Source: a virus
IMG/VR virus record: IMGVR_UViG_3300032053_000045
Span: 1-64,000 of that record
Strand: one strand, 5' to 3'
DNA: 64,000 nt
In this document: piece after piece, positions 19,849 to 46,624 of the stretch
How positions within the stretch are numbered: the stretch's first letter is position 1
How the letters are laid out: each line of letters begins with the position of its first letter
Translations under genes and position numbers: made by a program
The notes under the pieces: generated by a model
The model's input: the letters and a program-made list of their open reading frames with translations, nothing else
Databases searched by the model: none
Told to the model about the DNA's origin: nothing

Positions 19849-19889
19849 GGCTGGGTGCCTTGAACACCCGGCCTTAATACCTTTCAAGG
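19849..19889 (+). promoter_or_regulatory. RBS-sequestering hairpin/pseudoknot leader (simple form)
   Basis: Stem GGCTGGGTG/CACCCGGCC; loop CCTTGAA is complementary to TTCAAGG, which overlaps the SD. Confidence 0.6.
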
Positions 19890-19901
19890 AGGTAAATAAA
19901 A

Positions 19902-21278
19902 ATGAAAGAAAAGTTAGAATCATTACCTTGTGAATGCGGATGCGGTAGTTTGGCTAAACCTGGAAATAGATTCATTTTGGGACATAGTGGAGGAAGAATA
20001 AAAGTAAAGAAAGAATTGGAAATAAGAATTTGTATTTGTGGATGTAATCAGGCTTTTGAATGTAAAATAGATAGTGAACAAGAATATATTACAGGACATA
20101 ATCGTAAAGGAGAAAAGTTATCAGAAGAACAGAAAGAAAAACGTAAAGAGAAAATGAAAGAAAAGAGAGAGAAATATCCTAATGGTATTCCTATTATAAC
20201 TCGAATTTGTGAGTGTGGATGTGCCGGAACTTTTCAATGTGAAGAAACAAGTGATCAAAGATTTATCGGTAAACATGCACAGAAAAAAGCTAACACCGGA
20301 AGAAAACATATAAAAGAAATTAGAAAGAAAACAAATAAATGTAAATTTTGCGGAGAAGATTGTAAAAATATTTATTGTAGTAAAAGTTGTTATTTTAGTT
20401 TCGTAAGACAGAATGGGAGTTTTAACAAATTACCAAGAAAAATAATTCATTGTCTAAATTGTGGTAAAGAAAAAGAAGTTAGTATAAATGATAAAATAAA
20501 ATTTTGTAGTACAAAATGTATGCATGCCGGAAGGATAATTCCAGTTGAAACCAGAATCTGTGCTTGTGGATGTGGAGAAACTTTTGTTTGTAAAGTAATA
20601 AGTGATCAAAGATATATTAATCATCACGCAAGTAGAGCGAAAGAAATCAAAGAAAAAATAGGTTCAAAAATTAAAGGAAGACCTTCCCCGCTTAAAGGAA
20701 GAAAACAAACTTTAGAACACAGAATAAACAGCGGTCTACCGAAAAGAGGCAGAAAGTATAGTTTGGAACATTGTGAAAATATTGGTAAAGCTCTTACAGG
20801 ACTTAAACGAACAAAAGAACAATGTGAAAACATTAGTTTGAGTAAAATGGGGAAGAGCCAAACGGAAGAGTCTAATAGAAAAAGAAGATTAGCAATACTC
20901 AAAAGAATTAAAGAAAATCATGGCAAAGTTTTTCCTGCTTATAACAAACAAGCTTGTGATATTTTGAAACTTTTCGATGAAAAAAATCACACCCACGGTC
21001 AATATGCAGTTTACGGTGGGGGAGAATATGAAGTTCCGGAACTTGGTTATTTTCTTGATTATATAGAACATGAATATAAAATTATTATGGAAATTTATGA
21101 AAAACACCATTTCAATAAAGATGGATCGTTAAGACAAAAAGATGTGATCCGAGAAAGAGAAATTAAAACATTATATCCAGATCATAAATTCCATACTTTC
21201 AAAGAAGAAGAAATGAATAAGATATTAGAAATCAGTTTAAGAAAATTAAATTATGTAAAGCGTAAAGCTTTGCAGTAA
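19902..21278 (+). CDS. free-standing homing endonuclease-like protein (CxCGC repeats, NUMOD3-like repeats, C-terminal PD-(D/E)xK-like nuclease)
   Basis: Four CxCGC modules; C-terminus GQYAVYGGGEY..LDY..EIYEKHH..KD..RE shared with ORF 28148. Confidence 0.7.
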   Translation: MKEKLESLPCECGCGSLAKPGNRFILGHSGGRIKVKKELEIRICICGCNQAFECKIDSEQEYITGHNRKGEKLSEEQKEKRKEKMKEKREKYPNGIPIITRICECGCAGTFQCEETSDQRFIGKHAQKKANTGRKHIKEIRKKTNKCKFCGEDCKNIYCSKSCYFSFVRQNGSFNKLPRKIIHCLNCGKEKEVSINDKIKFCSTKCMHAGRIIPVETRICACGCGETFVCKVISDQRYINHHASRAKEIKEKIGSKIKGRPSPLKGRKQTLEHRINSGLPKRGRKYSLEHCENIGKALTGLKRTKEQCENISLSKMGKSQTEESNRKRRLAILKRIKENHGKVFPAYNKQACDILKLFDEKNHTHGQYAVYGGGEYEVPELGYFLDYIEHEYKIIMEIYEKHHFNKDGSLRQKDVIREREIKTLYPDHKFHTFKEEEMNKILEISLRKLNYVKRKALQ

Positions 21279-26328: not shown

Positions 26329-27446
26329 AAAAAGAAAATGAAATTCCTGTAAAAGGAACTTGGAATGATGTTACTCCAAAAGGAGAAAAAATTCAAGACA
26401 TTGACAAAGAAAACTTTGAGAAATCATTTCAAGATATACAAACAATAGAAAAAAGTTCTAAAGATGAAGATTTCGAGAAATCAAGGACATTAGGTGCTAA
26501 AGATAAACAGAAAAGAAAGAAAAAAGAACTGGATGAACAATATAAAAAATATGATCAGGGAAAATTAACCGGAAAAGAATCTTACAATCTTGCTCAAAAA
26601 TTAATAAGACACGAGGACGACAGAGGTTATGATATTTTAGGGGATAAACAAAGAGGGGAATCATCGGGCCGGGGGATAAAGAAATCATCTGATGAAGATT
26701 TCGACGCAGTTAAAAATAACAAAGGTACAGGTATTGTTTATGATTCTGAAATGAACTCAAATGAGAGCGCTTATATTAAAGAAGAAGAAAATACAAATTT
26801 TCCTACGGGAAAAATCAGAAAAGAGAATAAAGTTTCAGTTGCCGATGATGATATGGAGAAATCAAGAATTTTAGGGGCTAAAGATAAGCAAAAAAGAAAA
26901 AGAAAAATTGGTGATATTCTTAATATATTAAAAAGAAAATTCGGAACAAAGGTTAGTAAAATGGATCCAGCTTCAATTGATGAGTATTTAGTTACGAGAG
27001 GTGTAAGTCGATCTATAGCAGAAAAAATTACTCATAAATTTATTGAAACAATGGAAGATATTTCTAGTTTAAAAGATGAAGATTTTGCTGTCCGCAGAAA
27101 ACATACTCCCATTGTTTCTGAAGCTCAAAGAAGATTATTTGGGGCTGTTGCAGGTGGAGCTAAAACTGCCGCAGAAGGTTTATCTCCGGTTGAAGCTAAA
27201 AAACATTTAAAAGAAGTAAAAGGAAAAAAACTTCCTGAAAAAGTTAAAAAATCAATAGGGGATGGTGACAAAAAGAAAGTGAAAACATATGGGATTGTTC
27301 TCAGATCCAAAGATAAAGATCTCATGAATAAAATTGTTAAAGCTGTAAAGAAAAATCTATTTAATAAAGAAGGAGACATTGAGAAGGCTAAGAGCAAGGG
27401 AAAAACTGGAATGTACCAAGGATTCAAAAAATTGGTTCAAGAGTAA
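26307..27446 (+). CDS. hypothetical protein with repeated EKSRxLGAKDKQKRK segments
   Basis: Two internal repeats; GAGGA RBS. Confidence 0.6.
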   Translation: MVTFRFVKKENEIPVKGTWNDVTPKGEKIQDIDKENFEKSFQDIQTIEKSSKDEDFEKSRTLGAKDKQKRKKKELDEQYKKYDQGKLTGKESYNLAQKLIRHEDDRGYDILGDKQRGESSGRGIKKSSDEDFDAVKNNKGTGIVYDSEMNSNESAYIKEEENTNFPTGKIRKENKVSVADDDMEKSRILGAKDKQKRKRKIGDILNILKRKFGTKVSKMDPASIDEYLVTRGVSRSIAEKITHKFIETMEDISSLKDEDFAVRRKHTPIVSEAQRRLFGAVAGGAKTAAEGLSPVEAKKHLKEVKGKKLPEKVKKSIGDGDKKKVKTYGIVLRSKDKDLMNKIVKAVKKNLFNKEGDIEKAKSKGKTGMYQGFKKLVQE

Positions 27447-27480: not shown

Positions 27481-28053
27481 ATGAAAACATATGGTGTAAT
27501 TCTTAAGTCAACCAACAAAGCGACCATGAATCGTGTGGTAAAGATGGTAAAAAGTATTCTTAAAGCAAAAGAACCACAGAATGACAGCAAGGTTTTATCC
27601 ATGATCAAAGCCACACGAAATAAAGCTATGGGTACTGGCGGATCAGGGGCCGGAGTTGTAGGAGCAGGTATGGGGACAGCTAATCAGAGTTGGTCATACA
27701 AAAATCGCAACAAGAAAAAGAATATTAAAAAAGGTGTTAAGATAGAAACGGGGAAAGAGTACAACGAAAGACAAACTGCTCCAAGCGAAGCTACAGTTAC
27801 TGCCGGATATCCAAAGGGAACCGCAAAAATTCAAACAGTTGGCAAAAAGGGCTCTAATGCAGAACGGGGAAGTAATGCTACGACAAAACAAAAGGTTGAA
27901 GCCGGGTATCCTCAGGGAGTTGCCAAGATAAATAAGAATGTGAAAATTCTTGATGGGAAAGAATATATTTCTGGTCAGTCTGCTCCGTCGGAAGCAACTT
28001 TAACTGCCGGATATCCAAAGAATGCAACTAATGGAATTCCTGTAAAACGTTAA
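27481..28053 (+). CDS. basic hypothetical protein with three AGYP repeats
   Basis: APSEAT.TAGYPK twice and EAGYPQG once. Confidence 0.6.
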   Translation: MKTYGVILKSTNKATMNRVVKMVKSILKAKEPQNDSKVLSMIKATRNKAMGTGGSGAGVVGAGMGTANQSWSYKNRNKKKNIKKGVKIETGKEYNERQTAPSEATVTAGYPKGTAKIQTVGKKGSNAERGSNATTKQKVEAGYPQGVAKINKNVKILDGKEYISGQSAPSEATLTAGYPKNATNGIPVKR

Positions 28054-28068
28054 ATATTAAACAATCAA

Positions 28069-28137
28069 GGGGCTAAGTTTAATTTAGCTAATTAAACGAG
28101 GTAGCTTATTCCTACCAAGCCCTTAAACTCGAATAAG
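28069..28137 (+). promoter_or_regulatory. endonuclease-leader RNA motif (three-way junction plus RBS pseudoknot)
   Basis: GGGGCT-AA-hairpin-GA-GGTAG[CTTATTC]CTACC-AAGCCC; loop pairs with GAATAAG at the SD. Confidence 0.7.
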
Positions 28138-28147
28138 GAGATAAAAT

Positions 28148-29026
28148 ATGGAAGAAAAAATAGTAACTTGTCAATTGTGTGGTTTTCAAAGCACTCAGTT
28201 ACAATTTCATGTTAAAAAATATCATAATCTTACAGGAAAAGAATATAAAGAAAAATTTCCAAATAGTCAATTAGTTTGTAAAAAAGTTAGAATTTTGACG
28301 AGTGAATCAAAAAAAGGTGATAAAAATCCTCATTACGGTAAACATACTTGGAAATATGGTTTAACTAAAGAGACCGATGAGAGAATAAGAATTGCTGGAG
28401 AAAAAACCGGTAAAGCATTAAAAGGTAAACCTAATCTTGCTTGGAAAGACAAAAAATTAGAAGACATAGTTGGATCTTTTGAAAAAGCTCAAGAAATTAA
28501 AAAAGAACAAAGTAGATCAAGAAAAGGAAGATATGCCGGAGATAAAAATCCTGCAAAGAAACCTGGAGTTGGAGCAAAAATTAGTAAAGCGAAAATGGGA
28601 CATGAGGTTACAAAAGAAACGAGAATAAAATTAAGATTGAGAAGAATCGAACAGCTTACAGTTAACGGGAAAAAATGGGCTTCTTATAATATAAAAGGTT
28701 GTGAATATTTTAAATCCTGGGATGAACAAAATAATACCAAGGGTCAGTATGCAGTATATGGCGGGGGTGAATATTTGATTCCTGGATTATGGTTTTCTCC
28801 CGATTATACAAATCACGATATAAAAAAATTCAAAGAATGGGACGAACCTCGTCACTATGATAAATTTGGTAATCTTAAACCAAAAGATGTTCAAAGACAG
28901 AAAGAAATCCAAGAAGCCTATCCGGATCATGAATTTGAAAGAATTAAAGTAGATAGGAATGATAACATTCTTGAGATAAAACTATATCCTGCTTTAAATA
29001 CTTTATTAAAAGGAGACAAGGGATAA
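28148..29026 (+). CDS. free-standing homing endonuclease-like protein (C2H2-like finger plus PD-(D/E)xK-like nuclease)
   Basis: CQLCG..H..YH, WKYGLTKETDER; C-terminus paralogous to ORF 19902. Confidence 0.7.
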   Translation: MEEKIVTCQLCGFQSTQLQFHVKKYHNLTGKEYKEKFPNSQLVCKKVRILTSESKKGDKNPHYGKHTWKYGLTKETDERIRIAGEKTGKALKGKPNLAWKDKKLEDIVGSFEKAQEIKKEQSRSRKGRYAGDKNPAKKPGVGAKISKAKMGHEVTKETRIKLRLRRIEQLTVNGKKWASYNIKGCEYFKSWDEQNNTKGQYAVYGGGEYLIPGLWFSPDYTNHDIKKFKEWDEPRHYDKFGNLKPKDVQRQKEIQEAYPDHEFERIKVDRNDNILEIKLYPALNTLLKGDKG

Positions 29027-35860: not shown

Positions 35861-36270
35861 TGCAAAGAACTGAAGAGTTAAATTTATTTTTAAGATCGAT
35901 TTCAAAATCAGATGTTAGGACGAGACAAAGAAGAGTTAATCGATTTGAAAAAGGGACATTAAAAATGATTGTATTAAGCATTGATGGCGGAATCTTGGCC
36001 GTGACTGGCAGACTAAGGAATGAGCCGGATAGAAAAATTCAAACATTGATATTTAATAAATCGATTAATCCTTATGGAATAAAATCTTGGTCTTTAAGAA
36101 AAGCAAAAGATTGGGTGCATTTGTACAAAAAATCCATAATAAAATCTATTAACCCAGAAAAAATTTCAAATAGAATAATTATTATGAAAGCAATTAAGGC
36201 AGCTGAACATCAAATGATAAACAAATTACCGAAAATTATAAATAAGGTATTACAAGGAGATGAGCAATGA
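35857..36270 (+). CDS. hypothetical head-region protein
   Basis: IQTLIFNK..WS..KAKDWV..H motif; lies between portal and protease. Confidence 0.55.
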   Translation: MMQRTEELNLFLRSISKSDVRTRQRRVNRFEKGTLKMIVLSIDGGILAVTGRLRNEPDRKIQTLIFNKSINPYGIKSWSLRKAKDWVHLYKKSIIKSINPEKISNRIIIMKAIKAAEHQMINKLPKIINKVLQGDEQ

Positions 36271-38039
36271 GTAAATTATTGGGAGGGAATTTTTCTCTTG
36301 ATATTTCCAAGGCCGTGGAAGGTAAAATCAATCCGGCAAAGAAAAAACGGATAATCGAGGGATACATGACAACTCCCGCTCTCGATCTAGAAAATGAAGT
36401 AACAGACAGCAAGGCGTATCCTGAAGCTGCCGAAGAATTGAACCAACATGTTCATGATGGATCTCCAATTCCTATTTTTATTGAGCATCGTAGGAAAGAA
36501 ATTTCTTTACCTGTTGGGAGAATTATTTCTGCTGAAGCAAAGCCTAATGGGATATGGTTTAAGGGAGAGATCGCAGAAGGTAAAATAGCAGATCCTGTTT
36601 GGGAGCTGATTGAGCAAGGGATGTTAAACGGATGCTCAATGGGTGGAGATGCCTTAGAAACAGTTCCTGATTTTGATCCTGAGAAAAACAAAGAATTCAA
36701 AAGAATAAAAAAGATGACTATTAGAGAATTATCATTGACAGGGCTACCTGTTAATCCTCAAGCAGTTTTCTCTATGGCAAAATCTTTAAATATCGAAGAA
36801 AGGAAGGTGAGATCAAAATTGGAAAAATTAGAAAAAGCAATAGAAACAGAATATGATATTAGTACTATAGAGAAAGCTGTTAATGATGGAAAAATTGATG
36901 AAGAGAGTATGAAGAGAATAAAATCAGCTCTCGATGGATTAGAACAACTTATTGGAATAAAAACTGATGAAACTCCAACGAAAGAAGAGGCTCCCAAAGA
37001 AACAGAAGTAGCAGAAAAACCCACTGAAGATAAAGGTAAGTTAGATCAAATTTTAGAGAAAATAAATATGCTTGTTGAAAATAAGGAAAAACCTGCAGAA
37101 AAACCCGAAGAAACTATAGAAGAACCAAAAACTACAGAAGCCCCCAAAGAAGAAAAAGAAGAAGGAGGTGAAATGAATATGGCAAAAATGAAAGATATTG
37201 ATGAAAAAGAAGAAGATAAAAAAGAAGCAGAAACACTGAAATGTAAATCTTGTTCGATGGTCTTCGAAAAAAGTGAAGATGAAGATTACGAGGTTAAATT
37301 CTGTCCTAAATGTGGTAAACCATTCGGCGACGAAGAAGTTGAAGGCGAAGTTGATGCTGAAGATAGTGAAGATGGAGAGGAAATCGTTGACGAGGAATCA
37401 GTTGACGAAGAGCCGATGGATGAAGAGGAAGACATTGACGATGAAGAATTAGATCTCGATGAAGAAGGCGAAGATGACGAGGATGAATTCGAAGATGACG
37501 AGGAAGATGATGTTGAAATGGTAAAGTTTGTTGATGATGAGGATGAAGATGACGAGTTTGAGGAAGATGAGGAAGATGAGGATGATGAGTCCTTTGAAAA
37601 GAATTTAGAAATTCTTCAGTCAAAACCGTCAAAAGATTCCGGTCAGTCAATTTCAACATTCAAGGGAGATTATATCAAGCCATCAACTGGTAAACGGACT
37701 AATCCTGCTGACACCACAGAGCACGAACATCCGAAGCCATTCAAGCCGTTAGAGACTGGAGTTTCAGGTGAACAGTTTGCTAACTATGGTAAGGATCGTA
37801 CAGAGAAATCTATGAGTTCGTCCAGAATTAAGAGGATGGTTGAGAAAGCTGTTAAGGATTCCGTAGAAGAGACAATTAAATCTTCTATTGAAAAAGCAAT
37901 TGACGCTTCTAATGTTGAAAGAAAAGTTCTTGGTCCGATTGAGAAATCTCAAAATGCGACTCCTGATACTATCAGTGATGACAGAGTTTTCGCTCGTGCC
38001 CTTTCCCAAGGTCTGTCTGATCCGATCCCGATGGAGTAG
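36267..38039 (+). CDS. prohead protease (HK97-type) fused to acidic scaffold-like domain
   Basis: IEGYMT..DLENE, IFIEH..PVG, GCSMGG, ELSLTGLPVNP; C-terminal zinc ribbon and D/E tract. Confidence 0.88.
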   Translation: MSKLLGGNFSLDISKAVEGKINPAKKKRIIEGYMTTPALDLENEVTDSKAYPEAAEELNQHVHDGSPIPIFIEHRRKEISLPVGRIISAEAKPNGIWFKGEIAEGKIADPVWELIEQGMLNGCSMGGDALETVPDFDPEKNKEFKRIKKMTIRELSLTGLPVNPQAVFSMAKSLNIEERKVRSKLEKLEKAIETEYDISTIEKAVNDGKIDEESMKRIKSALDGLEQLIGIKTDETPTKEEAPKETEVAEKPTEDKGKLDQILEKINMLVENKEKPAEKPEETIEEPKTTEAPKEEKEEGGEMNMAKMKDIDEKEEDKKEAETLKCKSCSMVFEKSEDEDYEVKFCPKCGKPFGDEEVEGEVDAEDSEDGEEIVDEESVDEEPMDEEEDIDDEELDLDEEGEDDEDEFEDDEEDDVEMVKFVDDEDEDDEFEEDEEDEDDESFEKNLEILQSKPSKDSGQSISTFKGDYIKPSTGKRTNPADTTEHEHPKPFKPLETGVSGEQFANYGKDRTEKSMSSSRIKRMVEKAVKDSVEETIKSSIEKAIDASNVERKVLGPIEKSQNATPDTISDDRVFARALSQGLSDPIPME

Positions 38040-38351
38040 AGAACCTGTTAGACTAAACATAAAATGTTTGTCGTTAACGCGACGCTTTTCTTAATTTAAA
38101 TCAACGTTGATTCATTTGATTCAAAAATGCGGCTTTTGTCGCGCGGTTGAAAAAGTCCTGAATGTTTGTGATGGTGATCGAAAGAAAACTATCATAAGTG
38201 TGTTATAGACACATCAACTTCAGGCAGAAAAAAGAATTTTATTGTGGTTAAAAAACCACGGCTTGAAGGGGGTGACTTCCTGTGCTGACCCCCGAAGATG
38301 TTAACAACATCAGCGATAATATCCTCAGGAAAAAAGGAGGATAGAAATAAA

Positions 38352-41300
38352 ATGCGTACATCATTCAATTTTGGGTGATGTTAAACTCTACTATATCGGA
38401 GGAAGGTTTAAAAGAAACTAATAAATCAATTCCGAGGAAAGACTGGAATACTCCAGAATCCGTAGAGACTATACGTAGAGCTTCCTGAAAAAGGAAGAAG
38501 ATATAGTCCAAACTGAAGATATAAATAAAACTTCAGAGGAATTCAGAAATGAAATTCCCGCCTTGAAAAAAGGTTAATAAGTAATAGAATGTGAAAAAGC
38601 TTAAATCTGTGTTTTGGAGCTTTTAAAATTTGGCTATATGCTGGGACCTCCAATACTGGACAATCAGCAGGAAAGACTCTTAAAAAAGAGAATCCTCAGA
38701 GACTATACGCCAAACATCTCGTACGCATTCCAGGAAAAAGATGATGATATAGTCCGTTCTATATGGTGACATATAGAGGCAAGTAGAAATATTTGCCCGC
38801 CTTGTAAAAGGTAATAAAAGTAACACGAAGTGAATACAGTTGCCGGAACGGGTGGAGATACCTTGATCCCGCGTTTGGCGGATTTTTAATTTGGTCCGCT
38901 TTAAATTGAGCTAAATCGGTGAACATCTTTTTCTAAAGACAATACCGAGGAAAGACTGGAATACTCCAGAATCCGTAACGACTATACGCTCAACATTGGA
39001 ATAAAATCCATAAAGATATAGTCTAAACTCCAACTATAGATAAAATTGGAGAGGAATTCAGAAATGAAATTCCCGCCTAAAAAACTTTAGGTTATTAAAG
39101 TAATAGAATGCAAATCATTCCGTTTTTAAAATAAGCGGAATTCAAATTGGGCTAATTCGGTAAAAACCTGAAAGAGAAAATTTTTCAGGCAATACCGAGC
39201 TAAATTCAAGAACAATCTTGATAAAAGTGTAGAGACTATAAACCCGATGCTAATTCCTTTAATTAGTAATGATATAGTCCAAACTGCAAATATAAAAATT
39301 AAATTGCAGAGATAAGAAGAAATTCTTATCCGCCTCTTAAACAAGAGGTTATAAAAGTAATAAAATGTTATCCGGCAGAAATCGTGTTTAAATATGCGAC
39401 TTTGAGTAGAGATGCTCATCGAAAATCTCGTAAATTGCTGGAAAATCTTAACAGTCTACTAAACTACAAAGTAATTTCTTTAAAATGAAATAAACTTGAA
39501 TGTTTAAAAATTAGTAGAATTAGACAATCAGCAGGGAAGCTCGAAAGAGAACCTTCAGAGACTAGAGACGAGACATCTGAAAAGATGATGATATAGTCCG
39601 AACTTCAAAGAGATTTGAAGAGTTCTGTTTTAAAAAAACAGAGAGTAACACAATTGATATGCGCCAATTCCTCCCAACATTCGTATTAACTTGCGACTTT
39701 GAGTAGAAATACTCATTGAAAAATTCCGTAAATTGCTGGAAACCCCGAGTATATTTTGGTACAGAAAAATTAAATATTCTGTAAAAATCCAAAATTGCGG
39801 ACAATCAGCAGCCAAGCTTCCTCTAAGGAAGAAGGTTCAGAGACTAAAGACGGAACTTCTGAAAAGAAGATGATATAGTCCGATCTTTATAGCGATATAA
39901 AGAGTTGATAGAGAGAAAATATTTTTCTATCAGAATAACAGAAATGAATGCCGACCCAAGTTTATAGATTTCCTAAGTTAAGTGCTGGTTGATTTTATTG
40001 CAGCCACTTCAAGAAGAAATTCTTGTCGAATAAGCAACTATATCGGGGGAACTCTTCAAGAGAATAAATCTGAAGACAATCCCGACGGAAGAGAATACCA
40101 GAAATGGTGGAAAAAACTCCCGCTAGAGACTACACGTTGCAACCTTGAATAAAGGTTATGATATAGTCCAAACTGCATAGTGATATGCAGAGGAATTCAG
40201 AAATGAAATTCCCGCCTAAAAAACTTTAGGTTATTAAGTAATAGATTGAGCAATGTTTATTATGTTGGTGAGGCGATTGCGGCTCCAGAATCGGCAATGA
40301 GTACCGGAACCGTGGAATTGACTGCGAAGAAATTAATGGTTGATTTTAATGCAGCCACTTTTGAGAGAAATCTCAATTGAAAAATCTTACTATATCGGTG
40401 AAACTCTCGAAAACTATGATATAATATAACTATGGGGCTAAGAAGAGCTTTATAACCTCTTCGAAGGTGCCTAAATCACCAAGCCCCTTCTTTACCTATT
40501 TAGGAGGTAATAAATGAATAAATTTAGAAAATGTTTGTATTGTGATAATTTAGTTAAAGTAAATAAACCTCATATTGCCAGAATTCTTTGTCAAGAATGT
40601 AAAGATAAGAAAAACATTCCTATTTTTAAAGATATTCAGGGGATAGAAAATGTTAATTATGTGATTTGCAAAATTTGCGGATATAAAAGTACGCAATTAT
40701 TTTGGCATATTAAAAAACATCACAAATTAACAGGTAAACAATATAGATCTTTATTCCCTGGAGAAAAATTAATGATTTCTTGGAATTTAGGATTAACATC
40801 TGAAACAGACATTAGAGTTAAGAAAAATGCTGAAAATTCTGGTAAGGTTAGAAAAGGAAAGAAAAATCAAAAATCCAGTGAAACTAAGAAGAAAAAATTT
40901 AAATTGGGTTTATTAAAAATTTGGAATAAAGGCTTAACAATAGAAGATCAAAGAGTTAAAAATTATACAAAAAATCGTGAAAAGACAATAAAAGAAAAAT
41001 TTGCTTCTGGTGAATTAGTTGTTTGGAATAAAGGACAGACAAAATATTCACACCCAAGTATAGCTAAGTCAATAATAACAAGACGAGAAACGATGGCAAA
41101 AATTTAGCTTTAGATCCTCATTATTATGATCTTGACTTTGGTGAACCAAGTAATTTAGATTTAGCTCTATATGCCGAGTTAGAAAAACATAACATAAAAT
41201 ATATTCCACAATATTATTTCGTTTGTTCTGAATTAGAAACAATAATAGATGCGTTTATAGAACCAAATATTTGTGTTTATGTAGATGGTACATATTGGCA

Positions 41301-44300
41301 TAGTCCTGGTCATATGAGAAGTAAAGATAGTTATCAAAAACTTATTCTAAGAAATAAAGGATTCATTCCTTTAAGATTTTCTGAAGAATATTTTTATTCA
41401 AACAAACATTTAGTTATAGAAGAAATTAAAAAAGTTATTCGAGACAATACCGAGGCAACCTGAGAAATCAGAGAGTCCGTAGAGACTACACGTAAGAATC
41501 CTATCTAATCACATAGGAAAAAGATATAGTCCGAACTCTATAGTGATATAGAGAGATAAATAGAAATATTTACCCGCCTCGAAAGAGGTTATAAAGTAAC
41601 AAATTTGTGCCCTCGCCATCAGTGCCGAGTTACAAGAGGATAAATTGTTGTCCTCTAAAAATTGTATTAAAACGGTGAAACGCTTCGAGAATATATGTTA
41701 TAATTAATAGGGGCTAAGATTGACCTCATGAATCAATCGACGGTTGCCCTAACAACCAAGCCCTTCTTTACCTTAGGGGGTATGAAATGAAGAATGATAA
41801 GATTCAATGTCCAATTTGTAAAAATTGGTATCATAATTTGACAGGAAAACATTTGCAAAAACATGGTTATAATTCAGTAAAACAGTTTTTATTAGATTAT
41901 CCTAATTCTAAAACAATATCTAATAGAGTATCAAAAATTCTTTCAAAACATTGGCATAAGAAATTAAAACCAATGCGTAAAGAAATAGGTAGAAAATCTA
42001 GTGAGACTAAAAAAGAAAGATTTAAACTAGGTTTATTGGAACCTTGGAATAAAGGATTAACTAAAGAGACTGATAAAAGAATTAAGAAAAATGGTGAAAG
42101 TGTTTCTAATACATGGAAAAGAAAATCAAAAAGGGAAAAGAAAAAATATGGAAAAGTCGTCAGCAAAAGATTAAAAGGTAGAAGTTGGAAAGATCTTTGG
42201 GGTGAAGAACAAGCAGAAATAAGAAGTGAAAAACAAAGTAAGAGGTTGAAAGGAAAAGGTAGTCCTTTTTATAAAGATGGAAGATGTTCAGATAAATTAA
42301 ATTATATTAATGATTACGGACCAAATTGGCCAAAGATAAGAAAGGCTATTTATAAAAGAGATAATTGGACTTGTCAAGAATGTTTGGCAAAAGATAGAAA
42401 AGTACTTTGTCATCACATAATAGATTATTTTGATTTTCCGGTAGAAAAAAGAAAAGAATTTGCTCACCATGGATTGAATTTAATTACATTATGTTTTTCT
42501 TGTCATTCAAAATTAATTAACAAAAAGATTCTTAAAGTCAATACCGTGAGGTATTTAGAGATTACAAAATCTAAGTATCTTGTAACGACTACGTATTCAA
42601 AGGCAACTTTGAGTGCTACGTACAACATGCTAAAAAGCATGATGATATAGTCTAAACTGTAGACATAATTCATAAACTGCAGAGATAAGAAGAAATTCTT
42701 ATTCGCTTATTTCAGAATTAGGTTTTCTAAATAAGTTATTAAAGTAATAAATTGGCAATTTTGCCGATTGTGCCAGTTGTCAGAGATGACATGGCCAAAG
42801 CGTTCGCGCTGGCAGAAGAAGATGTGTTCGAATTGATGAGCACCTTTTGAGAGAAATCTCAATCGAAAATTCTACTATATCGGTGGAACTCTTTGTAATC
42901 TATTTGAAATCTATGATATAATATAACTATGGGGCTAAGTTTGAATTAATTACTCAAACGAGGTTGCCTGAACAACCAAGCCCCGTTACTTTTCAGGAGG
43001 TAAATATATGGTTTTTCCAAAAGGAAAAAAGTTTCCAAAATCTGGTATTGAAAAATTAAAAAAGACTTTCAAAAAACGTAAAGAATTAAAATTACACATA
43101 GGAACGAAGAAGATCAATGAAAAAAAGATTAATTATTGTTTAAATTGTGACAAAGAAATAATCGTTTCTGTAAATGGGTGTAATAAGGATAAGAAATTTT
43201 GTTCTTCAAGCTGCGCTTCTTCTTACAATAATAAAATTAGATGGAGCGATAATGAAAAGAAACAAAATTGGATAAGAAAAATCAATGAGACAAGAAAAAA
43301 TAATAATAGTTATCATACTGGAAGTTTAAAAGCAATTCAAACCAGAAGACAAAATAATAATTTATATAGTTGGAACACAGGTTTAACAAAAGAAACTGAT
43401 GAACGTTTGAAAAAAGCTAGTGAAAAACAAAGTAAAGATAGGAAAGGAGTTTCTTGGGTAGATCGCTTTGGAGATGAAACAGCAAAAGATATGAAAAGAC
43501 AAGCTAGACAGAGATTGACAGGTATGATTATCGACGGAAAATTAGAATTAAATTATGGTTTAGAATGGATAAAAATCCGAAAAGAAATTTTAATTAGAGA
43601 TAATTACACTTGTTGTGTTTGTAATGTTGAAAAAGCTGAAAAAGTTCATCACATTGTTCCATATAGAATTATTAAAAAACATGAGAAATTTTTATTAGTA
43701 TCAGTTTGTAAAAAATGTCATTTAAAAATAGAACCAAAGAATATACCGACGGAAGAGATTACCTTTGAATCGTATATAAATTATTATATAAATAAAGGTG
43801 GAAAACTCCCGCTAGAGACTACACGTAGAACCCCTATAACGGGTGATGATATAGTCCGAACCTCAGATATAAAATAAAACTGAGGAGTTATCTAGAAATA
43901 AGATAACCTCTTAAGAAATTAAGAAGTAACAAAATTGTTATCAATGGTAACACGGCTGGTGCTTTTGCGGCTAACGACCCTAAGTTTGCATGGATATGAA
44001 AAATATTTAGTGCCTTACAAGAGAAATCTTGTATAGAAAATTCAGAGAATTGCTGGAAGATCCTAAGAGCTTGTTTAACTACAAAGTAGATTCTGTAAAA
44101 TGAATCAAGCTTGATAGTTTGAAAATAAACAAGATTGGATAATCAGCAGGGGAGCCCGAAAGGGAACCTTCAGAGACTATGTACTGAACTTCCTGAAAAA
44201 GGAAGATGATATAGTCCGTACTTTAGGGAAACTTAAAGAGTTCTGTTTAATAAAACAGAGAATAACACAATAGTCAATGGTATTCGGATTTCAGGAACTG

Positions 44301-46131
44301 GTACAGATGTCAATGCTAGCTCGGCTGCACTTACGCTCGCGAACATCTCGACTTCAATTCAAAATTTGGGCGTCTACGGACGCGACAAATCAGAATTGCT
44401 GCTCGTCGTTTCGTTGAGAGAAGAAAGCAGACTGCGTCAGCTACTTGGTATCAATCTGGCGGTCAACGCACTTGGCCTTACCGGTACGGCACTTCCGGGA
44501 GAGATCGGTAAAGTCTGGGGGGTTCCTGTAGTTGCTACAAACCTCTTACCTACGACTCTTGCCCCGGGAACCTTGTCTGTGGCCCTGATGATCAACAGAA
44601 ATTGTGCAGTTATTGGTGGAAAAATTCGCCAATGTAAAAACTCGTAAATTCGGTGGAACTCCTGCAAAGGACAATACCGAGCCAAGCTTAATAGAGAAAC
44701 TCTCGAAATAGAATTTTTTTATTATGAAGGTGTAACGACTATACACGAGTCTTCTTTAGAAAAAAGAATGAAGATATAGTCTGAGCTGAATAGTAATATT
44801 CAGATGTAGACAGAAATGATCTACATTTGGAAGATAAATTCTTCCAAGATAACAGTCTGGATAGAAGGATCTTCACAATCAAGTCCTCAAATACATCTGG
44901 GGTCTTATAAAAAACTTCGAGAATTGCTGGAAGCCTTTAGAGCTTGTTTAACTACAAAGTAACTTCTCAAATGAAGTAAACTTGAATGTTCTAAAAATAA
45001 ACAAGATTAGGTAATCAGCAGCCGAGCCCGTGAGGGAAGGTTCAGAGACTATGCACGAAGCATTTGTTAAAAATAGATGATGATATAGTCCGATCCTTGT
45101 TGAAAAACAAGCAAATTTTATTATGGGTCTAAGTTGAGAATAATTAACTCCATGTATAAAATTTTGGAATTAAAAATATGCAGATGAGATTTTGATTAGG
45201 TCCGATCAGTTAAAACATAATAGCTGCTTCATAAAGAAATTTATGAATGGGACTTGGCTAATTCGGTGAAACTCCAGAAGTGGAAAACACCGAGCTAAAT
45301 TGAGAAGAGAGTTTCTCTCTCATAAATGTGTAACGACTATATACCAGGCATCCTAAAAGGATGAAGAGATAGTCTGATCTACAAATATAACCAAATGAAA
45401 TTGTAGAGTTGGTAATTCTTATACTTCGTCAATATAAGACAATCCAACACTCAGAAATGAGTTAACAAAATGTACTTGTCGTCGCGTCCGAAAGGATTAT
45501 GAAAAATTAGTCCGTTTAGATAGAAATATCTAAATAAAATAATCTCGAAAATTGCTGGAAGGTCATGAGAGTCAAACAAGCTACAAAATGAATCCTTAAA
45601 TGGATTGAGTTCGAATGCTTTAAAAATTGTTTGAATTTGATAATCAGCAGCCGAGCCCGAAAGGGAAGGTTCAACGACTACGCCCGAGACATCTCTAAAT
45701 GAGATGATGATATAGTCTGATCTTATGGGAAACCTTAAGAGTTGACAGGAAATGTTTCTTGTCAGAATAACACAAATGTGGTTTCGCTATGCAATACGCC
45801 GACGCCTCGGTTCGGATTATTAATATAAATAGTTCCATTTAAGAGTAATCTTAAATTGCAAACTCAGAGAATTGCTGGAAGGTCCTTAGAGCTTGTTTAA
45901 CTACAACATAATCTATGTTATAATAGATAAGTGTGAATGTTTGAAAATAAACAAGATTGGATAATCAGCAGCCGAGCCCGAAAGGGAAGGTTCAGAGACT
46001 ATGTACTGAGTTTCCTCGAGAGAGGAAAATGATATAGTCCGATCTCATAGGAAACTATGAGAGTTGTAGAGAGAATATTTAAAAATATTTCATCTGCAGA
46101 ATAACACAAATGTATTAATATCGCACCTTAG
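38352..46131 (+). CDS. major capsid protein (HK97 fold), 305 aa, split into 17 exons by 16 group I introns
   Basis: AAGGAGG RBS. Exons: 38352-38365, 38592-38602, 38831-38883, 39111-39123, 39368-39385, 39657-39684, 39947-39989, 40249-40340, 41608-41641, 42755-42827, 43938-43991, 44274-44617, 44860-44887, 45181-45210, 45473-45497, 45779-45817, 46113-46131. They join to 918 nt with no internal stop. Motifs: KAL.T..GTGG.TLIP, YVGE...PES, VELTAKKL, IS.EL.ED, EED.FING, G.VWGVPVV, IGDRR, SERIGF. Confidence 0.93.
38366..38591 (+). ncRNA. group I intron 1 of capsid gene (226 nt)
   Basis: P1 ACATCATT/GGTGATGT, P3 CTCTAC/GTAGAG, P7 GACTA/TAGTC, terminal G. Confidence 0.88.
38603..38830 (+). ncRNA. group I intron 2 (228 nt)
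   Basis: P1 AAAAGCTT/GAGCTTTT, P4 TGCTG/CAGCA, P7 GACTA/TAGTC, terminal G. Confidence 0.88.
38884..39110 (+). ncRNA. group I intron 3 (227 nt)
   Basis: P1 GCGGAT/GTCCGC, P4 TCGG/CCGA, P7, terminal G. Confidence 0.9.
39124..39367 (+). ncRNA. group I intron 4 (244 nt)
   Basis: P1 ATTCCGT/GCGGAAT, P4, P7, terminal G. Confidence 0.9.
39386..39656 (+). ncRNA. group I intron 5 (271 nt)
   Basis: P1 TCGT/GCGA, AATTGCTGGAA..AATCAGCAGG, P7, terminal G. Confidence 0.9.
39685..39946 (+). ncRNA. group I intron 6 (262 nt)
   Basis: P1 TCGT/GCGA, AATTGCTGGAA..AATCAGCAG, P7, terminal G. Confidence 0.9.
39990..40248 (+). ncRNA. group I intron 7 (259 nt)
   Basis: P1 TGGT/GCCA, P3 GCAAC/GTTGC, P7, terminal G. 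Confidence 0.9.
40417..40504 (+). promoter_or_regulatory. extended -10 promoter plus endonuclease-leader RNA motif
   Basis: TGaTATAAT then GGGGCT-AA-GAAGAG/CTCTTC-GAA-GGTG[CCTAAAT]CACC-AAGCCCC; loop pairs with ATTTAGG at the SD. Confidence 0.72.
40514..41463 (+). pseudogene. intron-encoded Vsr/DUF559-like homing endonuclease, interrupted by a -1 frameshift near 41098-41102
   Basis: Frame 0 (zinc finger, WNKGLT repeats) stops at 41107. The -1 frame continues ..IPQYYF..IDAFIEPNICVYVDGTYWH..KD..GFIPLRFSE to TGA at 41463. Confidence 0.75.
41696..41778 (+). promoter_or_regulatory. extended -10 promoter plus endonuclease-leader RNA motif
   Basis: TGtTATAAT then GGGGCT-AA-GATTGA/TCAATC-GAC-GGTTG[CCCTAA]CAACC-AAGCCC; loop pairs with TTAGGG at the SD. 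Confidence 0.72.
41787..42650 (+). CDS. intron-encoded HNH homing endonuclease
   Basis: N-terminal CPIC..H..KH finger; RDNWTCQEC..HHI..NLITLCFSCH; ORF reads into the intron core. Confidence 0.88.
   Translation: MKNDKIQCPICKNWYHNLTGKHLQKHGYNSVKQFLLDYPNSKTISNRVSKILSKHWHKKLKPMRKEIGRKSSETKKERFKLGLLEPWNKGLTKETDKRIKKNGESVSNTWKRKSKREKKKYGKVVSKRLKGRSWKDLWGEEQAEIRSEKQSKRLKGKGSPFYKDGRCSDKLNYINDYGPNWPKIRKAIYKRDNWTCQECLAKDRKVLCHHIIDYFDFPVEKRKEFAHHGLNLITLCFSCHSKLINKKILKVNTVRYLEITKSKYLVTTTYSKATLSATYNMLKSMMI
42914..42997 (+). promoter_or_regulatory. extended -10 promoter plus endonuclease-leader RNA motif
   Basis: TGaTATAAT then GGGGCT-AA-GTTTGA/TCAAAC-GA-GGTTG[CCTGAA]CAACC-AAGCCCC; loop pairs with TTCAGG at the SD. 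Confidence 0.72.
43008..43877 (+). CDS. intron-encoded HNH homing endonuclease
   Basis: RDNYTCCVC..VHHIVP..LVSVCKKCH; C-terminal residues are encoded by the intron core. Confidence 0.88.
   Translation: MVFPKGKKFPKSGIEKLKKTFKKRKELKLHIGTKKINEKKINYCLNCDKEIIVSVNGCNKDKKFCSSSCASSYNNKIRWSDNEKKQNWIRKINETRKNNNSYHTGSLKAIQTRRQNNNLYSWNTGLTKETDERLKKASEKQSKDRKGVSWVDRFGDETAKDMKRQARQRLTGMIIDGKLELNYGLEWIKIRKEILIRDNYTCCVCNVEKAEKVHHIVPYRIIKKHEKFLLVSVCKKCHLKIEPKNIPTEEITFESYINYYINKGGKLPLETTRRTPITGDDIVRTSDIK
43992..44273 (+). ncRNA. group I intron 11 (282 nt)
   Basis: P1 GCAT/GTGC, AATTGCTGGAA..AATCAGCAGG, P7, terminal G. Confidence 0.9.
44618..44859 (+). ncRNA. group I intron 12 (242 nt)
   Basis: P1 ATTGGT/GCCAAT, P3 ACTCGT/ACGAGT, P7, terminal G. 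Confidence 0.9.
44888..45180 (+). ncRNA. group I intron 13 (293 nt)
   Basis: P1 CCT/GGG, AATTGCTGGAA..AATCAGCAG, P7, terminal G. Confidence 0.87.
45211..45472 (+). ncRNA. group I intron 14 (262 nt)
   Basis: P1 CAGT/GCTG, P4 TCGG/CCGA, P7 GACTA/GAGATAGTC, terminal G. Confidence 0.88.
45498..45778 (+). ncRNA. group I intron 15 (281 nt)
   Basis: P1 GGAT/GTCC, AATTGCTGGAA..AATCAGCAG, P7, terminal G. Confidence 0.9.
45818..46112 (+). ncRNA. group I intron 16 (295 nt)
   Basis: P1 GGAT/GTTCC, P3 AACTCAG/CTGAGTT, P7, terminal G. Confidence 0.88.
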
Positions 46132-46291
46132 TTGTAAGACGATATTTCAGTTGAATATATCAACGGCAATGATGGAGGGGGTGCTTCAGACTAACCTCTA
46201 AAGTCCCCTCCTCTTGCAAAAGAAAATGATTTCAAAAAATAAATTTTAATTTAAAAGCTTCAGTGAAGCTGAAGTATAAGGAGGAAAAGAA

Positions 46292-46624
46292 ATGAAGTTT
46301 AAATTGTCAGAATCCGTTTCCCTGAATTGGAACCGGAGAGATGGAAAAGATACTGTTGATGCATACGAAATTAGGGCTGGTGTTTTTTCAGTCGATCTTC
46401 CTAAAGATGTTTCTGAGTATATGTTAGATTATTATAAAGATAAAATTCTGGACATCGACGATAAAAAAGAGGAAGTAAAACCGGTTGAAGAAGTAATTAA
46501 AGAAGTCAAAGCTCAAAGTGCAGAAAAAACAAAGAAATTTGAAGAGGAAAAAGCCGAGGAAGAGAAGCAGAAATCTAAACCTACACCCGGGTTATCTTTG
46601 GCTGACCTCGCTAAAAACGCTTGA
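46292..46624 (+). CDS. hypothetical head-region protein
   Basis: AAGGAGG RBS; follows the capsid gene. Confidence 0.6.
   Translation: MKFKLSESVSLNWNRRDGKDTVDAYEIRAGVFSVDLPKDVSEYMLDYYKDKILDIDDKKEEVKPVEEVIKEVKAQSAEKTKKFEEEKAEEEKQKSKPTPGLSLADLAKNA

Follow-up and report, generated by a model that had tools for sequence, protein, structure and literature searches.

The window analysed here is a 64,000-nucleotide stretch (positions 1 to 64,000) of the virus record IMGVR_UViG_3300032053_000045, which belongs to an uncultured sediment phage. Three successive introns within it, the first a group I intron of the capsid gene, carry in their L5 loops a cassette made up of a structured leader and an endonuclease-like ORF. 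The record as a whole holds four full and two minimal copies of this leader, the second minimal copy lying beyond the 64-kb window at 73360. The copies in the window are listed below with the ORFs behind them and the promoter-like sites ahead of the intron-borne copies; P1 to P4 denote helices, and the partner is the segment complementary to the P3 loop.

19849..19901, + strand: minimal leader, a single 9-bp hairpin (loop 19858-64) without P2 or junction; the loop complement, 19883-89, lies within a 5-bp SD hairpin
19902..21278, + strand: endonuclease-like ORF behind the minimal leader, with repeated Cys-rich modules
28069..28147, + strand: fourth full leader copy, outside any intron and 16 nt past the stop of ORF 27481-28053; P3 loop 28105-11, partner 28131-37, P2 hexamer TAGCTA
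28148..29026, + strand: free-standing endonuclease-like ORF behind leader 28069, with an N-terminal Ros/MucR-type zinc finger
40398..40425, + strand: promoter-like site (GTGAAA, 16 nt, TG-n-TATAAT) ending 8 nt before leader 40434
40434..40513, + strand: full leader copy in the L5 loop of the capsid-gene group I intron; P1 40434-39/40482-87, P2 40442-47/40457-62, P3 40466-69/40477-80, P4 40492-97/40505-10; P2 hexamer TTATAA, P3 loop 40470-76, partner 40498-40504, which is the P4 loop and overlaps the SD
40514..41107, + strand: endonuclease-like ORF behind leader 40434, with a zinc finger and NUMOD-like repeats
41675..41704, + strand: promoter-like site with an extended -10, ending 5 nt before leader 41710
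41710..41786, + strand: full leader copy in the next intron; P1 41710-15/41759-64 (G-U closing pair), P2 41718-23/41733-38, P3 41742-46/41753-57, P4 41769-72/41779-82; P2 hexamer TCATGA, P3 loop 41747-52, partner 41773-78
41787..42650, + strand: HNH endonuclease ORF behind leader 41710, its stop codon within the intron's conserved GATATAGTC element
42893..42922, + strand: promoter-like site with an extended -10, ending 8 nt before leader 42931
42931..43007, + strand: full leader copy in the intron after that; P1 42931-36/42979-84, P2 42939-44/42954-59, P3 42962-66/42973-77, P4 42986-91/42998-43003; P2 hexamer TAATTA, P3 loop 42967-72, partner 42992-97
43008..43877, + strand: HNH endonuclease ORF behind leader 42931, reading through the ribozyme's GATATAGTC element (43848)

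The intron-borne ORFs extend into the ribozyme core and overlap its 3′ half. The gene of ORF 40514 is split or frameshifted, since the DUF559/Vsr-like nuclease domain that belongs to it is encoded in a different frame, at about 41113-41464. Outside the introns, the C-terminal domains of ORFs 19902 and 28148 are 45% identical over 136 aa; searches of PDB and NCBIfam gave no name for this domain, and the homologue of ORF 28148 in the related phage G001 scores as DUF559.

A preliminary description of this DNA had reported the motif at 40434, 41710 and 42931 with the consensus GGGGCT-AA-[hairpin]-GA(N)-GGT(T)G-[loop]-CA(A)CC-A-AGCCC(C), and all of its statements about the sequence hold. RNAfold predicts one common three-way junction for all of these copies. 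The inner hairpins change sequence and keep their pairing (GAAGAG/CTCTTC, GATTGA/TCAATC, GTTTGA/TCAAAC), and the P3 loop complements a segment overlapping the SD, as had been described (CCTAAAT/ATTTAGG, CCCTAA/TTAGGG, CCTGAA/TTCAGG). That first reading passed over two copies, at 28069 and 19849, as well as the hairpin P4 around the SD and the self-complementarity of the P2 loop.

With a covariance model, 19 distinct full copies were recovered from seven contigs: this phage, four further contigs of viral origin and two from metagenomes. As the preliminary description had anticipated for such a search, every full copy lies directly 5′ of a homing-endonuclease-like ORF, whether HNH, Vsr/DUF559-like or resolvase-like. 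The leader is common to intron-borne and free-standing nuclease genes of several distantly related uncultured phages, which agrees with the earlier proposal that it moves together with such genes. The whole 73.8-kb record (G000) was also scanned without bias for hairpin loops able to pair with a segment that overlaps an SD ahead of a start codon. This recovered exactly six + strand sites, each preceding an endonuclease-like ORF; the - strand gave one site, which is spurious. The model rejected chance pattern matches at L007 (coding sequence), L016, L017, L034 (Planctomycetota MAG, 13 bits), L035, L039, L045 and L046. A 20-bit match, L044:11650, was left out of the family; it has a 7-bp P3 and a loop-tail match of just 5 bp including one G-U. 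A strict sequence pattern run against 185,579 species genomes turned up no true copy, although this was one pattern and the fold itself may still occur there. Megablast of 38000-46400 against phage GenBank returned zero matches, and a related-locus search with a 292-aa nuclease returned zero relatives. The phage, or parts of it, also occurs in DNA contigs from four sediment or freshwater runs, for which no variant of the leaders was listed. Among public runs, none of RNA is listed as containing the sequence.

Across the 19 distinct copies, 99.7% of the P1-P3 cells are paired, compared to 84% in shuffles, and none of 500 shuffles reached as high a value. Double changes occur in 12 of the 20 pairs, P1 alone has five compensatory variants, and controls slid out of register pair at 25-52%. 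Since G-U pairs occur on the + strand, the leader is an RNA of + polarity; a DNA-level hairpin was rejected because the G-U pairs are confined to that strand. The only conserved unpaired bases, four or five in number, are A7, A8, R30 and A31, while each of the four bases occurs at J3/1. Sequence conservation is far higher in P1 and the junction bases (CU-AA-G...C-GA...AG) than in P2, the P3 loop or P4.

A further constraint links the leader to the ribosome-binding site. The whole 6-7 nt P3 loop has an exact complement in its own tail in all 19 full copies and in 3/3 minimal copies, and this segment overlaps the SD, 7-11 nt before the ATG. There are 16 different P3 loop sequences, each with its exact partner. 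Among 16 copies, a loop matches its own tail over 6-7 nt (mean 6.44), whereas its match to the tails of other copies averages 3.65 nt. P4, which RNAfold predicts unaided, comprises 3-7 bp in all copies; its arms include the 3′ half of the SD and change together (ATCT/AGAT, ACCT/AGGT, ATAC/GTAT, ATTC/GAAT). The P3 loop covaries with a downstream single strand or loop, the pattern sought for a pseudoknot or kissing-loop mask, and because the partner segment is itself the P4 loop, the contact may be a kissing-loop. On the evidence of this covariation, the helices and the loop-SD pairing are real. The three minimal copies dispense with P2 and the junction and retain the hairpin, the loop-SD pairing and P4. 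As these forms keep only those elements, they probably constitute the functional core.

We therefore favor, with a probability of about 0.65, a model in which the leader acts in cis to mask the ribosome-binding site of homing-endonuclease mRNAs, serving as a constitutive attenuator that keeps nuclease translation low. The GC-rich P1 would close a three-way junction with the variable hairpin P2 and the short hairpin P3, whose 6-7 nt loop would pair with a segment starting 6-11 nt after P1 and covering the 5′ half of the SD. The 3′ half would pair with bases just upstream of the partner segment to form P4, leaving the SD held in a P3-loop/P4-loop kissing complex or an H-type pseudoknot. Binding of the 30S subunit would be reduced and the nuclease made at a low level. 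In the intron copies, ribosomes would be kept off an ORF that overlaps the ribozyme core, allowing the capsid pre-mRNA to fold and splice; attenuation has a rationale here because the intron-borne ORFs run into that core. We infer from the sequences that the loop pairs with the SD in vivo, that translation is lowered as a result and that the leader is a constitutive attenuator rather than a switch.

Several observations sit less comfortably with the masking model. Computed mean energies are −5.8 kcal/mol for the loop:partner duplex and −3.6 kcal/mol for P4, against −9.3 kcal/mol for SD:anti-SD pairing. The masking energies are thus modest, and repression may be weak or need a cofactor. A fully paired P3 loop is sterically tight for a classical H-type pseudoknot, and the coaxial geometry of a kissing complex is not obviously satisfiable with 0-4 nt between P1 and P4. 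In addition, about 10 endonuclease-like ORFs of G001 have no leader, which counts against the model.

Masking of nuclease genes has precedent in T-even and related phages. Structures that sequester the ribosome-binding site lower translation of I-TevI, I-TevII, I-TevIII, Aeh1 mobE and T4 segB, and translation of I-TevI, if unmasked, impairs splicing (PMC3014915). The leaders described here resemble those hairpins in placing a cis RNA structure over the SD of an intron-borne or free-standing nuclease gene, in having a promoter just upstream in some copies, and in their likely rationale of limiting the nuclease and stopping ribosomes from unfolding the host intron. Covariation likewise places the SD in a helix of the gene's own leader. 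However, the T-even hairpins are simple, local and gene-specific stems, whereas here one conserved multi-helix fold (the P1-P2-P3 junction plus P4) recurs across nuclease classes and phages, and a distant hairpin loop catches the SD through a pseudoknot or kissing loop. A conserved, covarying leader more elaborate than T4-type RBS hairpins, as first proposed, is thus what we find, and our best reading is that its architecture differs from that of the T4 I-TevI/mobE hairpins while it would do the same job.

Other known RNAs share single features with the leader. The SD is occluded by a pseudoknot in E. coli rpsO/S15, SAM-II and preQ1, where, as here, a loop pairs with a downstream SD stretch and closure is tertiary in type rather than a plain stem. 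Unlike those systems, the partner varies freely between copies, and none of their Rfam models matches. ColE1 RNA I/RNA II and TAR-TAR* likewise pair two 6-7 nt loops over their full length, as the P3 and P4 loops would here, but these RNAs and the HIV-1 DIS act in trans between two RNAs, while the P3-P4 contact lies within one leader. The int-alpA motif (RF02996) is also a small phage-associated 5′ leader motif of putative function; it gave zero matches at E<=10 in the record and four related contigs (G000-G004). At the gathering threshold, Rfam 15 identified only Intron_gpI and tRNA in the window and no leader family. At E<=10, a 6 kb segment and two 91-nt leaders returned just noise, at 10-20 bits compared to gathering scores of 35-75. 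The suggestion that the element may be undescribed therefore stands, since no Rfam family matches at either setting.

The leader could instead be a regulated switch, in which a protein or small ligand at the conserved junction stabilises or opens the loop-SD contact and so times nuclease synthesis, in the manner of a riboswitch, S15 or gp32. The far better conservation of P1 and the junction than of P2, the P3 loop and P4 is consistent with this, as is the presence of one leader on several nuclease classes, which a common regulator would predict. A stabilising factor would also make sense because the computed mask is weaker than SD:anti-SD pairing. Nevertheless, we consider a switch rather unlikely. 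The few conserved unpaired bases and the free variation of J3/1 do not amount to a ligand pocket of many invariant unpaired nucleotides in all members, the junction is missing from three minimal copies, Rfam contains no riboswitch or protein-binding leader that fits the 91-nt queries at E<=10, and no candidate binding partner was identified. The earlier label 'riboswitch-like' is therefore one we would not keep. Because the minimal copies retain the loop-SD pairing without P2 or the junction, a plain SD mask is the more natural reading than a ligand pocket.

The P2 loop raises a different question. Its 9 nt carry a hexamer, U-N-N-N-N-A, equal to its own reverse complement in 19/19 copies, in six variants. 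Hexamer positions are 'paired' in 100% of cases compared to 79% in shuffles, and their covariation is 0.593 compared to 0.165, with 0 of 500 shuffles as high; this self-complementarity was absent from the model used for alignment. It is not a simple extension of the stem, because its register is off by one from that of P2, and a search for a second cis copy of the hexamer nearby found none. The HIV-1 DIS loop has 2 nt, a self-complementary hexamer and 1 nt, and P2 has the same layout, with a covarying central hexamer flanked 2+1 within its 9-nt loop. The hexamer might therefore let two leader RNAs kiss, in which case masking would depend on RNA concentration, or the dimer would be the active form. 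Homodimerisation of this kind is a possibility here, and an improbable one: ten of the 19 hexamers read TAATTA and, with A-U pairs alone, would make a weak kissing helix, the central-pair covariation may stem from a single event, and P2 is dispensable, being absent from the minimal forms. The hexamer may alternatively be an intramolecular cap in which two extra pairs close a two-base loop, as extra pairs do in the CUUG tetraloop.

The promoter-like sites bear on a further possibility. The preliminary description placed each copy a few nucleotides after TGnTATAAT, which is correct for the three intron copies (5-8 nt) but not for the family, where such a site with a -35-like hexamer precedes only about 6 of the 19 members. 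The -35-like hexamer of the site at 40398 is the intron's own J4/5-P5 segment. Following the logic documented for I-TevI (PMC3014915), read-through transcripts carrying the whole structure could be silent while promoter-proximal transcripts, starting inside P1, misfold and are translated. TG-n-TATAAT-like sites do stand immediately ahead of the three intron copies, of L022:1501 and of the two L043 copies. In w41710, L021 and L020:1501 just 1-5 nt separate the -10-like hexamer from P1, and transcription beginning about 7 nt past that hexamer would start within P1. We nonetheless judge such differential masking very improbable. For the copies whose promoters look best, the -10 stops 6-9 nt short of P1, so that transcription would start at or before the first G and include the full structure; canonical sites end 5-9 nt upstream of P1 rather than within the 5′ arm. 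P3, its loop and P4 lie far downstream of the start in all cases, with the masking loop about 36 nt further downstream, and many copies have no recognisable promoter. Because the promoter is not inside the masking arm, the T4 route to unmasking late transcripts is not obviously applicable.

A 5′ stabiliser or folding insulator with no translational role, protecting the AU-rich nuclease mRNA from 5′-end-dependent decay or the ribozyme from ORF-induced misfolding, would suit a stable core (mean −18.5 kcal/mol, computed), a P1 that would sit at the 5′ end, or close to it, in transcripts from the promoters, and a cassette inside L5, but it accounts neither for 16 loop sequences each with an exact partner over the SD nor for leaders on free-standing genes, and we give it very little credence. 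Readings of P3 as tRNA-like or a T-arm, and of the junction as a hammerhead or other ribozyme, were dropped because the loops have no conserved sequence and Rfam returned no match.

Homing endonucleases need enough expression to spread, and not so much that they harm the phage or the carrier intron, a balance so far explained in T4-like phages by gene-specific hairpins. Here a single portable, conserved fold would serve nucleases that differ in catalytic class, whether or not they lie in an intron, and its natural covariation is the equivalent of many compensatory-mutant experiments. The leader is well suited to become a new Rfam family and would be a marker for annotating mobile nuclease cassettes in metagenomes, and as a small, natural and programmable loop-to-SD lock it could find a second use in synthetic biology. 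A plain mask would have no need of the near-invariant junction or of the covarying, self-complementary loop of P2; the masking model leaves both unexplained, and they leave room for a regulatory mechanism. Speculatively, the leader could be a modular device with the junction as a platform, an address loop that locks the SD-hairpin loop, and a self-complementary loop that pairs leaders or recruits a factor, so that translation switches with RNA concentration or infection stage. We think this arrangement doubtful; if true, it would add a new class to the known regulatory RNAs, one devoted to selfish nuclease genes.

Every statement that the preliminary description made about the sequence of the three intron-borne leaders agreed with the window when we checked it. 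For each copy, unaided RNAfold returned the same three-way junction, closed by P1 (GGGGCU/AGCCCC) and holding a variable P2 and a P3 of 4-5 bp. A covariance model of the leader built from four copies (R1) matched two more sites weakly. These are stripped-down forms in which one hairpin of 9-10 bp carries a 7-nt loop exactly complementary to the segment overlapping the SD. We also scanned the full record without a model, for a GC-containing hairpin with a 6-8 nt loop, a complement to 6 nt or more of that loop downstream, SD-like bases and a start codon; this recovered the same six leader sites on the + strand, together with one spurious site on the - strand.

Leader copies in the record
40434, 41710 and 42931, + strand: full leaders, intron-borne
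28069, + strand: fourth full leader, heading a free-standing ORF; the stop of the previous gene lies 16 nt upstream
19849-19901, + strand: minimal leader
73360-73410, + strand: minimal leader, outside the window

Exact-pattern scans of IMG/VR and the JGI metagenomes, filtered with R1, revealed more copies in six further contigs, four of them viral (G001-G004) and two from metagenomes, for a total of 19 distinct full copies (alignment A5). One of these contigs, G001, represents a complete phage of 178 kb that has terminal repeats; it is syntenic with this phage but distant from it (25-55% amino-acid identity across the structural module), and it carries six full leaders and one minimal leader. 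The same strict sequence pattern found no true leader copy among 185,579 species genomes.

Several leader-like or tRNA-like elements were also seen. At L044:11650-11727 (= L015:2414-2491), a divergent leader-like element scoring 20 bits occupies the L5 loop of another intron; its P3 is 7 bp long, its 5-nt loop matches the SD hairpin loop only weakly, and it is possibly a degenerate copy or a different subtype. In L021 (G002 36146-36223, - strand) a tRNA D-arm-like sequence, GCTCAGTTGGT, lies upstream of the leader, where ARAGORN calls no tRNA. G001 27150-27260 (L048) has a tRNA-like T-arm and a 7-nt loop, CTCCAAA, with its exact complement shortly downstream, ahead of an SD-like site. This is perhaps an anticodon loop, and the match may be chance.

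In A5, standard pairs fill 99.7% of the cells of P1, P2, P3 and the P2-loop hexamer, and in 12 of the 20 pairs both sides change. None of 500 shuffles reached the observed values, and slid controls dropped to 25-52%. P1 occurs as GGGGCU/AGCCCC, GGGCCU/AGGCCC, GGGUCU/AGACCC, GGCCCU/AGGGCC and GGCUCU/AGAGCC, while the 5' strand of P3 reads GGUUG, GGUG, GGUAG, GACUG or GGAG, each with its own complement. Because G-U pairs fall on the + strand, the element is an RNA of + polarity. The P3 loop takes 16 different sequences among the full copies, and in all 19 the loop finds its full-length reverse complement 6-11 nt after P1, ending 7-11 nt before the ATG. Loops match their own tails over a mean of 6.44 nt, against 3.65 nt for the tails of other copies (16 copies). 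Covariation in these sequences thus shows the pairing of the P3 loop with the segment over the SD.

The partner segment is itself flanked by complementary arms of 3-7 bp (UAAUCU/AGAUUA, UUACCU/AGGUAA, UAAUAC/GUAUUA, AAUUC/GAAUU), which turns it into the loop of a small hairpin at the SD, P4; the 3' half of the SD forms the 3' arm of this hairpin. RNAfold predicts P4 unaided. Our confidence in this hairpin is moderate, since its arms are AU-rich and alike between copies. The contact between P3 and its partner may thus be modeled as a loop-loop kissing complex, instead of or alternating with an H-type pseudoknot. P4 goes beyond the preliminary description, as does the self-complementary P2 loop considered below.

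The most probable role of the leader, to which we give about two chances in three, is that of a cis-acting mask of the SD that attenuates nuclease translation. Here the SD would be held in the pairing of the P3 loop with its partner, and translation of the nuclease would be damped as a result. We infer this effect on ribosomes from where the pairing lies and from the precedents of T4, Aeh1 mobE and segB. The computed energies average -18.5 kcal/mol in the core, -5.8 in the loop:partner duplex and -3.6 in P4, set against -9.3 for SD:anti-SD. This comparison suggests that the mask damps translation more than it locks it, or else that a stabilising factor is missing.

The mask does not explain why the sequences of P1 and the junction are conserved, nor does it account for the P2 hexamer, so a trans factor or dimerisation acting on the leader is conceivable. 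All 19 copies have a 9-nt P2 loop with a self-complementary hexamer (TAATTA, TCATGA, TTATAA, TAGCTA, TGATCA or, with a wobble, TGGCTA). The hexamer is not part of the alignment model and is out of register with the P2 stem; its "paired" score is 100%, compared with 79% in shuffles, none of 500 scoring as high. A search near the leaders found no second copy of the hexamer. Two extra pairs within the hexamer may cap P2, or the hexamer may permit leader-leader kissing. SD unmasking of the T4 type is a poor fit, as promoter placement here differs: in copies with a good extended -10, transcription is predicted to begin at the first G of P1 or upstream of it, and the whole of P1 would be transcribed. 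The suggestion that the element is riboswitch-like is unsupported, given few conserved unpaired bases, a variable J3/1 and minimal forms lacking the junction.

The 73.8-kb IMG/VR virus record, whose first 64 kb form the window, is an estimated ~59% complete. Among metagenome runs, the strongest DNA match to the stretch comes from a sediment metagenome that is probably the very sample it was assembled from; two other sediment runs contain roughly a quarter of the words sampled from the stretch, and one freshwater run contains a small share. An Rfam search of the window identified 10 ORF-less group I introns at 38.6-46.1 kb. The array directly follows the prohead protease gene, and the interrupted gene is therefore most likely the major capsid gene. 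Three more introns, the "introns 8-10" of the preliminary description, each contain an ORF and were for that reason missed by the Rfam model; the presumed capsid gene (window 38352-46131) thus holds at least 13 group I introns.

When an ORF-less sibling intron is aligned to the Rfam model, the conserved CUAUAUCGG-GAA segment falls at P4-J4/5-P5 of the ribozyme, which puts the leader and ORF cassette in the P5 loop. The -35-like GTGAAA of the promoter-like sites (window 40398-40403 and 41675-41680) is the intron's own J4/5-P5 segment, so that one sequence would serve both ribozyme and promoter. The intron-borne HNH ORFs also extend over the 3' half of the core of the ribozyme:

42644-42652: stop of ORF 41787, inside the conserved GATATAGTC element
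43848-43877: 3' end of ORF 43008, reading through GATATAGTC into P9

A translating ribosome and a folded ribozyme would therefore be mutually exclusive on one RNA molecule, the same conflict documented for I-TevI (PMC3014915).

An ORF lies directly 3' of every leader copy. As the preliminary description had proposed, the leader travels with endonuclease genes; these genes include free-standing as well as intron-borne ones. The ORFs share Ros/MucR-type zinc fingers, NUMOD3-like repeats and Cys-rich repeats, and differ in their C-terminal nuclease domains:

HNH: 41787, 43008, L038, L019:253
DUF559/Vsr-like: L018, L022:609, L020:1579, L027:402, L032 and the broken 40514 gene
Endonuclease or resolvase-like: L043:482

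About 10 DUF559 or HNH endonuclease-like ORFs of G001 (e.g. 14491, 43398, 55584, 74192, 88576, 146585 and 147719) have no leader, and the leader thus marks only a subset of that phage's mobile nucleases.

Behind two of the leaders the nuclease is not encoded by one intact ORF. The gene behind leader 40434 is split (window 40514-41464): a 197-aa ORF stops at 41105-41107, a second in-frame stop follows, and the DUF559/Vsr-like nuclease domain goes on in another frame at ~41113-41464. Its homologue L027:402-1061 is a single intact ORF of 220 aa, and the split gene reads as either a frameshifted pseudogene or a case of recoding. At L029:1501-1639 (G001 78694-78835) an intact leader precedes a 21-aa ORF with the usual nuclease N-terminus, a decayed nuclease whose leader was kept.

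Covariance-model searches found the leader fold absent from Rfam 15, as the preliminary description had thought possible, and a keyword search of the literature, a weak negative, found no published description. The Rfam model for int-alpA (RF02996) likewise gave no match in this record or in G001-G004, even with a cutoff of E<=10. By its probable function the leader belongs among the RBS-sequestering structures already described for homing-endonuclease genes of phages; structurally it is a distinct, conserved and portable fold.
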